Below are positions 891-32,980 of a stretch of 64,000 bases of DNA, piece by piece (position 1 is the first letter of the stretch; each line of letters starts with the position of its first letter). This DNA comes from Eledone cirrhosa (taxonomy: Eukaryota): positions 8,866,001 through 8,930,000 of the forward strand of contig OZ024752.1 of assembly GCA_964016885.1 (NCBI GenBank), in the 5' to 3' direction. A program made the position numbers and the translations under genes. Below the pieces are notes generated by a model that had not been told where the DNA came from, did not search any database, and worked only from the letters and a program-made list of their open reading frames with translations.

Positions 891-1087
891 TAGGAAAAAG
901 TATGACCCCGACGGCAGAGCTCAAGCCGTTTCGACGGCTATTTCTAGACTCTAGAAATAGCCGTCGAAACGGCTTGAGCTCTGCCGTTGCGGTCATACTT
1001 GTTCCTAATACCCACTCTACTACCCTAAGTATTGAGTACTCTGGTGCATTATGGTCCATCTGGTTCCTTACCACAATCCCTTCGTTA
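891..1087 (+). mobile_element. Fold-back mini-element in (TA)n, family C copy 1
   Basis: Short inverted arm plus long arm, palindrome centred at 949, both ends in TA repeats. Homologous to 4457, 24049 and 32787. Confidence 0.75.
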
Positions 1088-1232
1088 TATATATATATAT
1101 ATAAAAGTTCTATTTAAATTGTTGGGATACAACAAGCAAATATTTTTATAACTGATATAAAGCACTCAACAAATAATTGGAGTAAAAATACGATATTAAC
1201 AAATGGAAACTATATTTATAAAAACATATTTA

Positions 1233-1293
1233 TTTCATTATACATATTTCAAGGACACCAAGTTAAATTATGGTGTGCTTTCATCAGATAAAA
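1233..1293 (-). ncRNA. Type I hammerhead ribozyme motif (family A)
   Basis: Minus strand: ttttat-CTGATGA-aagcacacca(taatttaact)tggtgtcctt-GAAAT-atgt-ATA-atgaaa. Helices I and II pair, the cleavage triplet is AUA, and helix III is short and near-palindromic. Confidence 0.75.
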
Positions 1294-2108
1294 TATAATA
1301 TAGAGCAGTTTTATAAATAAATATTGACATACCCTTAAAGAATGCAACCATTACTGTTGGAAGCTCTCTTACATTTGGTAATGGAGTAGTTATATAGTTA
1401 TATTTTGTGTTGTTCACTTTCTAATTATATATATATATATATATATATATATATATATATATATATTGACGAAGGACTATTTTTATCATATGTAACCCAT
1501 GTGCAAACCACGCAGTATTCTTCTTTCTTCTCATGTTTTTTATATATATTTACCTCGGCTGCGTTTGTCTGTTTCTCTCTTACTGCTTCCCCGCTCTCTC
1601 TGTTTCTCTCACCTTCTTTCGCCCCCTCTGTCAGTTACACTTTCTCTCGACTGACCTCTTCCTCACACTTCCACTCACTCACTCTATGTTTCTCCCCTTC
1701 TCACTTCCTCTCGTTTGGCTTGTGTGGGCCTCTTCTTGCTCACATCTCACACACATCAACACGGTCTGTACCTCTCTCGCTCATGAAATCCACCCAGCTT
1801 ATGCTGACCAGGACTAACATGTTGCTTGTTTATTTTCCTATCTTCGGTTTGCTTTTATCCTTCTATGTTGTTTACTTGTCCCCCTCGCCTTACGCGAATT
1901 CTGGTCCCAATAACATTTTTTAGTTATTGCTCGCACCAACCTGAGGTATCTGATTTTTAATGCGATGAAATACCAATGATGGTTGGAAAATCACTGACGA
2001 AATACTATTTTTATCATATGTAACCCATGTGCAAACCACGCAGTATTCTTCTTTCTTCTCATATATATATATATTTAATTAGAAAGGGAACAACACAAAA
2101 TATAACTA

Positions 2109-2168
2109 CTACATTACCAAATGTTTCAGGGCCCTAGACAATATGTCTGGATCGGTCATCAGATAGAG
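2109..2168 (-). ncRNA. Hammerhead ribozyme motif (family B), helix II degraded
   Basis: ctctat-CTGATGA-ccgatccagacatattgtctagggccct-GAAAC-atttg-GTA-atgtag. Homologous to the 18661 copy. Confidence 0.5.
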
Positions 2169-2902
2169 ATGTTATGAATAGAAAATAAATGCTTTTTCTT
2201 CGGAATTACCTAAAACATATATATATATAACTTTATCACACACACACACACATATATATATATAACTTTATCACACATACTCACATATATATATATATAT
2301 ATATAACTTTATCACACACACATACACACACACATATATATATATAAAACTTTATCACACACACATATATATATATATATATAACTTTATCAAACACACA
2401 CACACACATATATATATATAACTTTATCACACACACACACACACACACACACATATATATATATATAACTTTATCATATACACACATACATATATATATA
2501 TATATATATATATATATATATATATATATATATGTACAACTTTATCATATACACAGTCACACACACACACATATATATATGTATGTATGTAAAAGGTAAA
2601 CAGAAATAACAACACAATCGGTACAGTATATGGAAGGAATATATTAGGTTAACGCTTGTTATAGCAGGAAGAGGGTCTCAACGTTTCGGACACTAGTCCT
2701 CCATCGGAAGAAAGAATGAGAAATAAGATAGATTGAAGGGCCGGGCGGGGTGCGGTTCTCTACACCCGGAGTCCAAATCCCGCCAGGGACAACTATGCCT
2801 TTCACAATTTTAAGATCAGTAAATAAAGTACCAATCCAGGGTTGTGGACTGGTGGAATTGTTAGAGTACCTTGTGGTTTTTGTGCGTTCTGAGTTGAAAT
2901 AT

Positions 2903-3363
2903 CAGGGGTGGTGGAACTGGGGGAGGGACTGGCAGGGGGCGGGGCATGACGCCCCCACCCACCAATTAATAATTATATTTTTCTCCCCAAACTACCAAAA
3001 CACACATCTATTTGTATATGTGCTACAATTTATATACATGTCATATTTATCGCATATGGAAGTTTTTTAATATTATGGTTGATGTTTTATAATTGTTTCT
3101 ACTTTTGGCACAAGGCCAGCAATCACCCCAGTGCATCACTGGTACTTTATTTTATCGACCCCGTAAGGATGAAAGGCAAAGTTAACCTCGGCGGGATTTG
3201 AACTCAGTCCGTAAAGGGACGTAACTGTGCTGCAAAGCATGGCGTCCGACCCTCTACCGATACTGCCATTCCACCGAACAGCTAAACTAATCACTATAAC
3301 TCATTTGACCAAATTTGGGCCCCCACTCCGCCTCCCAATTTAGAAATGTTTCCACCACCTCTG
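2903..3363. mobile_element. MITE with 5-bp AATAT TSD, containing a SINE
   Basis: aatat|caggggtggtggaa ... ttccaccacctctg|aatat. SINE at ~3090-3280 inside. Confidence 0.65.
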
Positions 3364-29053: not shown

Positions 29054-29734
29054 ATAAATGGTTTGAACAGAACTTTGATTCATGTAATTTCCATATATAT
29101 ATATATATATATATATATATAAGTTGTAATAAAATGAAAACGAAATTTCATTTCTCACTCTTAGTACGGCACTTACTTAACACCGTGCGGCATAAATTCA
29201 GGCTGTTCAGTTTGTTTACAAACGAACAAAGCGGGCGCTATAATAAGCGTCCGCTAAACTGATACGTACATATATGTATGTGTACCTGTATGTATGTATA
29301 TGTATATATATATATATATATATATATATATATATATATATATATATATGCATGCTACTGTACGTCTGTATACATATATGTATGTACGTATACATACATA
29401 CTTACACACATATATATATATATATATATATATATATATATATATATATATATATATATGTGTGTGTATATATATATATATATATATATATATATATATA
29501 TATATATATATATATAAACGGAAAAAATGAAACGAAATTTCATTTCTCACTCATAATACGGCTGTTACTTAAATATAAATATCTATACGTACATACATAT
29601 ATGTATACATACGTACAGTAGTATGTATATATATATATACATACATGCACACATATATATACGTATGCTCAGCCGTTAATAGGCATAAGGAAAGTATATA
29701 CTTTCAGACGTTCAATCATCTGGTAGGAAGGTAT

Positions 29735-29777
29735 ACGGTGCTGATGATAGCTAATAAGCTTGAAACTAGTACAGCGT
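29735..29777 (+). ncRNA. Minimal hammerhead ribozyme motif (family D)
   Basis: acggtg-CTGATGA-tagctaataagctt-GAAAC-TA-GTA-cagcgt. Helix III is the palindrome ACUAGU and the triplet is GUA. Confidence 0.7.
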
Positions 29778-31947
29778 TCCTTTGTCAGTGTTGAACAAAC
29801 GAGCAACGATGGTTGCTGGACACTATGGGTTAATTCGGGATGTTTGTTTACAAACACACCGAGCATTATAATAAATGTTCGGTAAATCCATACGTACATA
29901 TATATATATATATATGTGTGCCTGTATGTATGTATATATACATACTACTGTACGTCTGTATACATATATGTATGTACGTATACATACTTATATATATATA
30001 TATATATATATATATATATATATAATATATATATATATATATAATACATATATACATACATACATATATATATATATATATATATATATATATATATATA
30101 TATATATATATATATATATATATATATATATATATATATATATACATATATATATATACATATATATATATATATATATATATACATATATATATATATA
30201 TATACATATACATAAATCTATCTATCTATATATATATATATACATACATATATATATACATACATACATATATATACATATATACATACATATATATACA
30301 TACATATATATATACATACACATATATATATATATATACATACATATATATATATACATACATATATATCTATATATATATATACATACATATATATATA
30401 TATACATACATATATATATATACATACATATATATCTATATATACATACATATATATCTATATACATACATATATATATATATATATACATACATATATA
30501 TATATATATATATATATATATATATATATATATATATATATACATACATATATATATCTATATACATACATATATATATATACATACATATATATCTATA
30601 TATACGTACATATATATCTATATATATATATATATATACATACATATATATATATATATATATATATATATATATATATATATATATATATATATATATA
30701 TCTATATATATATATATATATATACATATATATATCTATATATATATATATACATATATATATATATATATATATATATATATATATATATACACATATA
30801 TATATCTATATATATATATATATATACATATATATATATATATATATATATATATATATATATATATATATACATATATATATATATAATATATATATAT
30901 ATATATATATACATATATATCTCTCTCTCTCTCTCTCTCTCTATATATATATATATACATATATATATCTCTCTCTATATATATATATACATATATATAT
31001 CTACATATATATATATATACATATATATATCTATATATATATATATATATATATATATACATATATATATCTCTCTCTCTATATATATATATATATAGAT
31101 AGATATATATGTATATATATATATATATATATATATATATATATATCTATATATACATATATATATCTATATATATATATATATATATAATATAGATATA
31201 TATATATATATATATATATATATATATATATATAGATATATAGATATATATATATATATATATATATAGATATATATATATATATATATATATATATATA
31301 TATATATATATATATATATATATTATACATATATATATATATATATCTATATATATATATATATATATATACATACATATATATATATATATCTATATAT
31401 ATATATATATATATACATACATATATATATATATATCTATATATATATATATATATATACATACATATATATATATATATATCTATATATATATATATAT
31501 ACATACATATATATATATATATCTATATATCTATATATATATACATACATATATATATCTATCTATCTATATATATATATATATATATATATACATACAT
31601 ATATATATATATATATATATATATATATATATATATATATATATATATATATATATATATATATATATATCATAAAACATGTCTATAGAATCACCAGATA
31701 AAATATATACCATTTCCTCTCCCAATTAGCATAATTAACCATATAAAAAAATCGATTAGACCAAGCTATAAGAATAAAGGCTTCTATGAAGAAATCTCCG
31801 CCAAACAACCGAAAGCAGCCCTTCGCGCCGGCTGCGACGGAGTATTTATCGAGTATTTCGACAGCGTGTACATATCGCCCAGATATACAGTCAACTAAAC
31901 AGAATTAGGTGTAAAATAAACTAGGAGAAAAGTGAACATATTTAGTT

Positions 31948-32025
31948 ACCTCTACCATGGTTTCGTCCGCATTTTAAGATATCCGATAACATCGGGCATC
32001 TAGAGCACCGGACTCTTCAGGAAGT
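31948..32025 (-). ncRNA. Type I hammerhead ribozyme motif, canonical core
   Basis: Minus strand: acttc-CTGAAGA-gtccg[long loop containing ccgat-gtt-atcgg hairpin]cggac-GAAAC-CATG-GTA-gaggt. Helix II has the canonical G-C closing pair and helix III is the palindrome ACCAUGGU. Confidence 0.8.
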
Positions 32026-32786
32026 TAGCTCAAATTTAGACAATAAATTTTCCAAAGTGATTGCGCTAAGAATACATTCAAAAATGGCTAAGAATCGTGA
32101 CGTAGCAGCGGTCAGGTTAGAAAGAATGTGATTAGTTGCTTACGGCTGGTATTATACATGGTACCCTGTGACGACAAGTGCAGAGAGATCTCCAGATATA
32201 AAGCAATGCCTGTGCCGTGAAGCTTTTATAGTGAGCAAAGGCACTGCACAAAGCCAGTGCCACTCTCTTAACCAAGATGATATTTACCAAAAAGAAGAAC
32301 AAGTCAACATCATTGGATACCATCAGGGTGGCAGGTGTTATATCAGAGTTTTCCTTCTCCTAGAATTCTGCCTTGACAAAGGCGAAATGCTGACGTCATT
32401 TGGTCTCCAATGTTGCCTCCATCTTGAAACAACGAGTTAATAGATGCCAGAATATGATAGAGATATTGGATTGTCTAGAAATTGTAGCTAAGTCCTGTAC
32501 AACATATATATATATATAGACTGGTATATATACATATATATATATATACTGGCATATACACATATATAGCTAAGTCCTGAACGACACATATATATAGAGA
32601 TTGGCATATATACATACATACATATATATATATATATATATATATATATATATATATATATATATATATATATATATATATATATATATATATATGTTTG
32701 TATGCCAGTATATATATATATATACTGGCATACAAACACACACACACACACACACACATACATATATATATATATATATATATATA

Positions 32787-32980
32787 TAGGAACAAGTAAG
32801 ACCCCGACGGCTGAGCTCAAGCCGTTTCGACGGCTAATTCTGTCCAGAATTAGCCGTTGAAACGGCTTGAGCTCAGCCGTCGGGGTCTTACTTGTTCCTA
32901 TTACCCACTCTACTACCCTAAGTATTGAGTACTTTGGTGCGTTATGGTCCACCTGGTTCCTTACCACATTTCCTTCGTTA
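32787..32980 (+). mobile_element. Fold-back mini-element in (TA)n, family C copy 4
   Basis: Centre aattctgtccagaatt. Flanked by TA. Confidence 0.78.

Follow-up and report, generated by a model that had tools for sequence, protein, structure and literature searches.

Four short fold-back insertions in a 64,000-nucleotide (nt) stretch of the Eledone cirrhosa contig OZ024752.1 (the whole of it called the window here, with positions counted from its start) are almost certainly 5'-truncated stubs of a Penelope-like retrotransposon with the motifs of the Hydra clade, a family present in more than 40,000 copies. The ends of these stubs pile up at two positions of a hammerhead ribozyme, one of which looks like a transcription start and the other like the cleavage site, and the way in which their arms are joined suggests that each fold-back is probably made by two reverse transcriptions of one RNA. 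The element and its form of insertion are already known in kind; what gives this family its value is the junction statistics.

The fold-backs occupy positions 893-1085, 4459-4621, 24051-24259 and 32789-32978, with (TA)n runs on both sides of each, and a BLAST search of the window with the long arm of copy 4 returned these four copies and their inverted arms, and nothing else. Element positions are numbered from +1, an A inside loop II of the hammerhead that is the putative capped start; reverse transcription has an inner start site at +58 and an outer one at +138 (Table 1). Every window copy consists of one tailed arm and one inverted, tail-less arm that halts at TTCC beside TA. A preliminary description of this DNA, which had recognized the four copies and their flanking (TA)n runs, gave their order as (TA)n, short inverted arm, turn, long arm and (TA)n; this is directly true of copies 1 and 4, the tailed arms of which lie on the plus strand, and true of copies 2 and 3, with tailed arms on the minus strand, only once they are reverse-complemented. 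It also placed a GAAA box, helix III, GUC and the 3' strand of helix I in the long arm, which is correct in general, except that GAAA is missing from that of copy 2 and GUC-GGGG is mutated in that of copy 1. Direct reading bears out its other structural points: the CUGANGA half of the hammerhead is absent from all four copies, leaving ribozyme-dead stubs that hold the 3' half only, the turn point differs in each, the short arm terminates next to TA as stated, and TA homology is found at both insertion ends. No open reading frame (ORF) remnant was found in the window by tblastn, and no hammerhead was detected in it by an Rfam scan.

Exact matches to a 25-mer from the tail number 41,829 in the 3.0-Gb genome and those to its reversed-sequence control zero, which excludes chance; matched patterns counted 27,002 inverted arms abutting TA and 27,548 tailed arms. 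The pattern samples described below are the first 100 matches along contig C1 rather than random draws, several of the counts were made by eye, and genome-wide junction totals are extrapolated from those listed samples. A script divided 95 tail matches from the start of the same contig (90 of 100 listed places taken) into 70 fold-backs, 10 copies that run upstream through the hammerhead core and 15 that do neither; nearly all tail ends in this sample, and all four window copies, lie in (TA)n targets. About three quarters of the copies are stubs of 100-250 base pairs (bp), within a continuum of arm lengths that reaches beyond 3 kilobases (kb). The long copies lead to master elements built as pseudo-long terminal repeat (pLTR), ORF, 3' untranslated region and pLTR (L032 and L190), the unit measuring 3,629 bp in L032. 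The four window copies match the 3' part of this pLTR. The intact ORF of L190, 719 amino acids (aa) long, encodes a reverse transcriptase (RT) with YRDD, followed by a C-terminal GIY-YIG endonuclease (VIY...YIG); the motifs of both domains are conserved in 15 aligned sequences from among 2,054 protein homologues at about 40% identity. The ORF has DKT and RWR (RWK in most homologues), and shares with its homologues a CxCX5C linker, the lack of CCHH, and CxxC and CxH around E and N. Searching Pfam and PDB with its sequence gave no match. A protein search of the genome found many open frames of 784 aa and tandem arrays with a period of about 3.53 kb. Given the intact ORF, the many 784-aa frames and the tandem arrays, the family is young, and to judge from these sequences it is probably active today. 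Partial tandems also occur (L036, L032 and L190), and in L345 and L036 (G000:C18:43515000-43521000) the arms end at +42 or near +1 and then continue into the ORF of the same element, joints that are consistent with template jumps building partial tandems.

By their predicted fold, the masters carry a hammerhead of type I topology in a U3-A8 variant, for which self-cleavage after GUC is expected. The preliminary description had anticipated a CUGANGA half upstream in the masters. Such a half is indeed present, with 5,846 core matches, and reads UUGANAA in 75 and CUGANAA in 25 of the first 100 listed, with no CUGANGA among them (by eye). U3-A8 covariation is already known from the hammerheads of Schistosoma Penelope-like elements (PLEs) (Cervera and de la Pena, 2014; PMC4209133). 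A quarter of the upstream cores in this sample have a C3-A8 mismatch, and yet that lineage is abundant. When a master was folded without constraints, the three-way junction formed with its helices, GAAA box, NUH triplet and G10.1-C11.1 pair, and in an alignment of 15 copies 92% of the cells were paired, with three helix-II pairs changed on both sides, although only by way of two related old copies. Against a working hammerhead stand the start of helix II, a lone G-C pair followed by an internal loop, and an Rfam search of a master that returned no hammerhead match. The perfect 5' strand of helix II that had been expected in the masters is absent from them and exists in the stubs only as a mirror image.

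The first pile-up of ends is a wall at +1. The range from -7 to +9 contains the ends of 75 among 100 inverted arms and of 57 among 79 tailed arms. Ten of the 100 inverted arms continue past the wall, and in window copies 1, 3 and 4 the arm ends are at the wall or at most five bases from it. Just before +1 the masters have C or T. A purine at this place was matched 4,933 times, the first 100 comprising 86 G and 14 A (by eye), and a script applied to 30 loci gave 26 G and 4 A, with tailed and tail-less arms alike; the control before +6 had 24 G, 23 A and 53 T (100 matches, by eye; Fisher p 1e-5 versus +1). Roughly one third of the G residues before +1 can be read, by eye, as the last base of the partner arm, and G is also found directly after (TA)n. 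In L1 and SVA, an untemplated G at the 5' junction has been interpreted as a copy of the cap (PMC4859970). A TATA-like box lies 29-31 nt upstream of +1 in all five lineages checked. From these features we infer that transcription starts at +1, inside the hammerhead, and yields a capped RNA devoid of the 5' half of the ribozyme. The preliminary description had the CUGANGA half replaced by the inverted copy, with a turn that differs in each case; the main reason for its absence from the stubs is more likely a start of the RNA downstream of this half than a replacement at random turns. Two other sources of the wall and the G were considered and rejected: a splice acceptor near +2 or +7, for which there is no constant upstream exon and which leaves the extra G unexplained, and A-to-I editing, given that the masters have C or T at this position. 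Two oddities of these junctions may be recorded here. Runs of 13-17 A or T, in both polarities, stand at the junction beside +1 in L209, L172 and L066, and the inverted arm of L127 has its start not at +58 but at -3, where an AATAAA-like word of loop II lies about 12 nt above it; this start could be an RNA 3' end.

The second pile-up lies at +42, and cleavage is predicted between C41 and G42, immediately after GUC. A pattern in which G42 follows a base other than that of the template was matched 2,958 times, with 45 clear and 2 ambiguous junctions in the first 100, which extrapolates to about 1,330 arms ending at +42 genome-wide, compared with at most 400 and about 250 at the neighbouring positions. 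The control at +41 (1,235 matches) gave about 33 junctions per 100 by eye and 11 of 30 by script, many of the C residues being those of the partner arm, and the control at +44 (1,907 matches) gave about 13 per 100 (p 8e-7). We inspected individually 36 loci with +42 ends, all those among the listed clear junctions. By script, 28 of them have a partner arm, which ends at +42 or +43 as well in 16 cases, is shorter in 6 and longer in 6, and 8 have none; end sharing expected at about 2-6% is thus observed in 16/28, and in five of the 36 loci a single spacer base separates the halves of a perfect palindrome. These arms are most simply read as copies of ribozyme-cut RNA, in which case the +42 peak would be an indirect sign that the hammerhead works in vivo, an activity of Penelope hammerheads that has been called 'still a mystery' (PMC7761336) and 'still unclear' (PMC8557442).

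Several observations weigh against cleavage as the source of the peak. Both the start site and the cleavage are read from DNA; position +42 is also the foot of helix III; six of the 28 partners extend upstream of +42, which is impossible from one cleaved RNA, at about the background rate of the controls; and a haplotype mostly tied to the C3-A8 core is not depleted among +42 ends (11/36 versus 13/74). The peak might instead mark a stall of reverse transcription at helix III or a G-run hotspot, with the rest of the account kept. A stall fits the location of C41/G42 at the foot of helix III on its 3' side, as well as the undiminished C3-A8 lineage and the report of no reads at the ribozyme cleavage site of an anole element (PMC11167929). 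Stalling would not be expected, however, to give both arms the same end, as found in 16 of 28 loci; the peak falls on +42, not on +41 or +44; and an RNA beginning at +1 folds with a stem that extends to +46. We regard a stall as rather unlikely, although by no means negligible.

The relationships among the copies point to repeated origin. Of 74 short fold-backs, 60 carry the same 14-nt haplotype in both arms, against a mean of 14.7 and a maximum of 26 over 2,000 shuffles. The common haplotypes are also those of long master copies, and together these two facts indicate that fold-backs arose repeatedly from several master lineages, in agreement with the earlier view of the four copies as independent retro-insertions from master elements. 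The mirrored variants that had been called private to single copies are not: the haplotype of copy 3 is the commonest one, found in 25 of the 74 sampled fold-backs and also in long masters, and the variant of copy 1 is that of a different master lineage. The two arms differ in haplotype in a few copies, for example L103, and these speak against the mechanism favoured below. The alternative named at the outset, a single fixed palindromic miniature inverted-repeat transposable element (MITE) altered by central deletions and gene conversion between arms, can draw on an arm-to-arm divergence of 3.0%, lower than the 8.1% between copies (49 copies). It is contradicted by asymmetric ends, the cap-type G, RT-encoding masters with the same haplotypes and arms of variable length continuous to more than 3 kb; the hallmarks of a MITE, namely symmetric terminal inverted repeats, a fixed length and a DNA-transposase parent, were not found, and this origin is extremely improbable.

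How a fold-back forms is suggested by its two fixed start sites, 80 nt apart. In the master each is followed by TAT, which provides short homology to a nicked (TA)n end. A twin hairpin below the two sites was borne out only in part: the outer site folds in this way in all 11 distinct read-through sequences, and the inner site shows the corresponding pattern, but for its commonest variants the minimum-energy fold is a different one. In the mechanism that we propose, a promoter inside the hammerhead, with its TATA-like box over the 5' strand of helix II and its start in loop II, would produce an RNA that undergoes two target-primed reverse transcriptions, primed from opposite strands of the (TA)n tract. 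Each would begin internally near the RNA 5' end, reach that end after 58 or 138 nt and copy the cap as it runs off, and the two cDNA 3' ends would then be joined head to head through a template jump or homology of 0-1 nt, often after trimming, a joint that would both create the fold-back and prime the second strand. Read-through RNA from tandem copies would contain the complete ribozyme; cut after GUC, it would supply templates that start at +42, and left uncleaved it would give rise to long arms. We consider this mechanism as a whole, that is, twin priming on one RNA, displacement and head-to-head joining, fairly probable, and favour it over the cDNA snapping back on itself and over a dimer of two RNAs. 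A broader proposal, in which nesting the promoter in the hammerhead spares the capped mRNA, read-through RNA cleaved in the germ line serves as template and one RNA reverse-transcribed twice yields the form of an inverted copy plus tail, is advanced more tentatively, as having slightly less than an even chance.

The preliminary description had instead derived each insertion from hairpin self-priming during reverse transcription, resolved at TA microhomology. In detail, one cDNA would pass the 5' end of the RNA, fold back and serve as its own template as far as a cut or stop at the inner TAT, and later deletions in the palindrome would account for the odd junctions. Such a route would explain the shared arm haplotypes (60/74) and the shared ends together, and the tail has been attributed to resolution of an intermediate by the endonuclease (Craig et al., 2021; PMC8557442). 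Most copies, moreover, including the majority of the short ones, are nested or nearly so and hence compatible with a snap-back, later deletions in palindromes could yield non-nested arms, and the excess of longer inverted arms shrinks from 20 to 6 in the raw counts to 8 to 5 after ascertainment; all three points tell against our preference for two primings. We accordingly dropped arm-length asymmetry as evidence, since 8 to 5 is not significant within the range that both arms could reach. Self-priming requires a loop and an inverted arm nested in the other, and what a hairpin does not readily accommodate is found at individual junctions. One-base spacers at the cap site occur in three of five loci (L354, L355 and L358) with the G on both arms, and zero-base palindromes occur at +42, so that, with a cap G or a +42 end on either side, no room is left for a loop. 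In L233 a tail-less arm with its own cap G is joined to a tailed arm that stops inside the tail; L178 and L322 are solo tail-less arms between TA runs; the two arms of L031, one of the loci with non-nested long arms (with L174, L156, L212 and L152), carry different internal deletions; and junction homology is 0-1 nt in 64 of 79 copies. Among 79 short copies (two ambiguous and three internally deleted ones dropped), 15 have an inverted arm that outreaches the tailed one by at least 10 nt, as it does by 21 nt in window copy 2, and six of 100 copies have arms without any overlap. The turn points, the distribution of which the preliminary description had proposed to map, are not random but pile up at +1 and +42. 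As a general route, self-priming is thus unlikely.

Alternatively, two RNAs held in a protein dimer could serve one target strand each, with shared ends due to the same source locus or to mutual cleavage through the palindromic loop III. The six of 28 partners that are longer than +42 and the rare copies of mixed haplotype would be natural consequences; in addition, the PAc protein is a predicted dimer (PMC11167929) and PLE hammerheads have been proposed to act as dimers (PMC4209133). In the six of 100 copies with non-overlapping arms, however, these stop in the tail just below the inner start, as if after collision on one RNA, and one RNA accounts more simply than two for so frequent a sharing of a rare end. 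The participation of two RNAs is therefore, in our estimation, decidedly improbable, and priming twice on a single RNA is the reading that we retain. Contigs of three runs (one study) aligned to a master have loose (TA)n ends at the two start sites as well as an opposite-strand joint, which indicates that the junctions are not only an artefact of long-read assembly, with the proviso that these runs may come from the source sample of the assembly and that contigs cannot show starts.

Table 1. Arms and junction of the four fold-back copies in the window, with element positions in brackets.
Feature	Position	Strand
Copy 1, inverted tail-less arm (+1 to +58)	893..950	-
Copy 1, tailed arm (+4 to +138); GUC site mutated; tail at 1006-1085 (80 nt)	951..1085	+
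Copy 2, tailed arm (+28 to +138); without GAAA box	4459..4569	-
Copy 2, tail-less arm (+7 to +58); 21 nt absent from its tailed arm	4570..4621	+
Copy 3, tailed arm (about -3 to +138)	24051..24191	-
Copy 3, junction: extra A/T bases and 3-nt spacer absent from master	24192..24198	no strand
Copy 3, tail-less arm (about -3 to +58)	24199..24259	+
Copy 4, inverted tail-less arm (+5 to +58)	32789..32842	-
Copy 4, tailed arm (+3 to +138); GAAA box 32859-32862, helix III, GUC 32881-32883 region, tail 32899-32978	32843..32978	+

Beside copy 1, at about 495-850, the window holds a fold-back of a second Penelope-type family with 38 genomic matches. Its tail-less arm (about 700-850) contains a whole minimal hammerhead with the canonical CTGATGA core, and its tailed arm ends after a short overlap; several copies of this family have non-overlapping arms, and many ends are clustered about 100 nt upstream of the hammerhead. 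Elsewhere, an AT-rich, near-perfect palindrome of 482 bp (98.8%) at 40297-40778 is the source of a spurious MIR2630 match in Rfam, and inverted pairs of 100-280 bp surround microsatellite-rich centres at 18485-19617, 36640-37392 and 45921-46902. Long minisatellite arrays, with approximate periods in bp given in brackets, are found at 5347-7236 (90), 33576-35811 (40), 42490-45622 (40-80), 50716-52893 (61), 53138-54466 (38-40) and from 60916 onward (31).

Among the titles and abstract openings surveyed, a scope that leaves aside subscription papers and supplements, we found no cap G, no start in the hammerhead and no cleavage-site ends described for PLE insertions; the supplements of PMC8557442, with Hydra sequences and ribozyme drawings of possible relevance to novelty, lie outside this scope. 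Such junctions are likewise not described in the portions covered of a retrozyme preprint and of the repeat annotation of Octopus vulgaris. The tens of thousands of young stubs lead to base-exact predictions, namely capping at +1, an end left by cleavage at +42 and two starts of reverse transcription. Through the junction statistics, what Penelope hammerheads do in vivo and how the inverted arm arises become open to direct test. Counting junctions can be applied to any Penelope-like family from the genome alone. A promoter inside the ribozyme, if real, would in a simple manner leave the mRNA intact and let read-through RNA be processed, and for the host genome the stubs amount to tens of thousands of seeded short perfect hairpins.

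Twin priming of L1, as proposed by Ostertag and Kazazian, is said to produce a 5' inversion via both target strands with arms that do not overlap, whereas the arms described here mostly copy the same stretch, from fixed internal starts. The 5' inversion from two-strand priming and the untemplated G (for the latter, see PMC4859970) are alike in the two systems. The PAc Poseidon protein nicks and extends both strands in vitro and has two internal starts flanking the tail (Frangieh et al., 2024; PMC11167929); two internal starts around the tail, an AT-rich target and the use of both strands are all shared. That study saw no reads at the ribozyme cleavage site and found cleavage dispensable in vitro, and in the portions consulted it leaves the inverted arm unexplained. 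With known PLE hammerheads (PMC4209133) the predicted ribozyme shares type I topology, U3-A8 covariation, a long helix II and a palindromic loop III; it differs in a helix III that is a full stem of 5-6 bp and in a loop II of about 35 nt, which likely holds the transcription start. One rotifer pLTR, the inverted copy of which is 37 bp shorter, has been noted to contain TATA plus an initiator-like motif (PMC8557442; PMC3846280). The traits listed for the Hydra clade are a single ORF, DKT, RWK, a CxCX5C linker, no CCHH, CxxC and CxH on either side of E and N, (TA)n targets and a hammerhead in the pLTR (Craig et al., 2021; PMC8557442). The Eledone family agrees in the single ORF, in the order of RT and GIY-YIG, in DKT, CxCX5C, the lack of CCHH, the CxxC and CxH motifs, (TA)n targets and the hammerhead, and departs from the clade in RWR instead of RWK, in its U3-A8 core and in a unit of 3.5-3.6 kb where the clade is 'generally under 3 kb' (a tendency, not a rule); its placement is by these motifs. 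The standard PLE insertion is, finally, a 5'-truncated copy with an adjacent inverted copy and a one-sided tail (PMC8557442, legend to Fig. 2; PMC3846280). The layout and the partial tandems are common to both, whereas here the tail measures 80 nt instead of 30-40, about three quarters of the copies are stubs of 100-250 bp, and the ends map to single bases.

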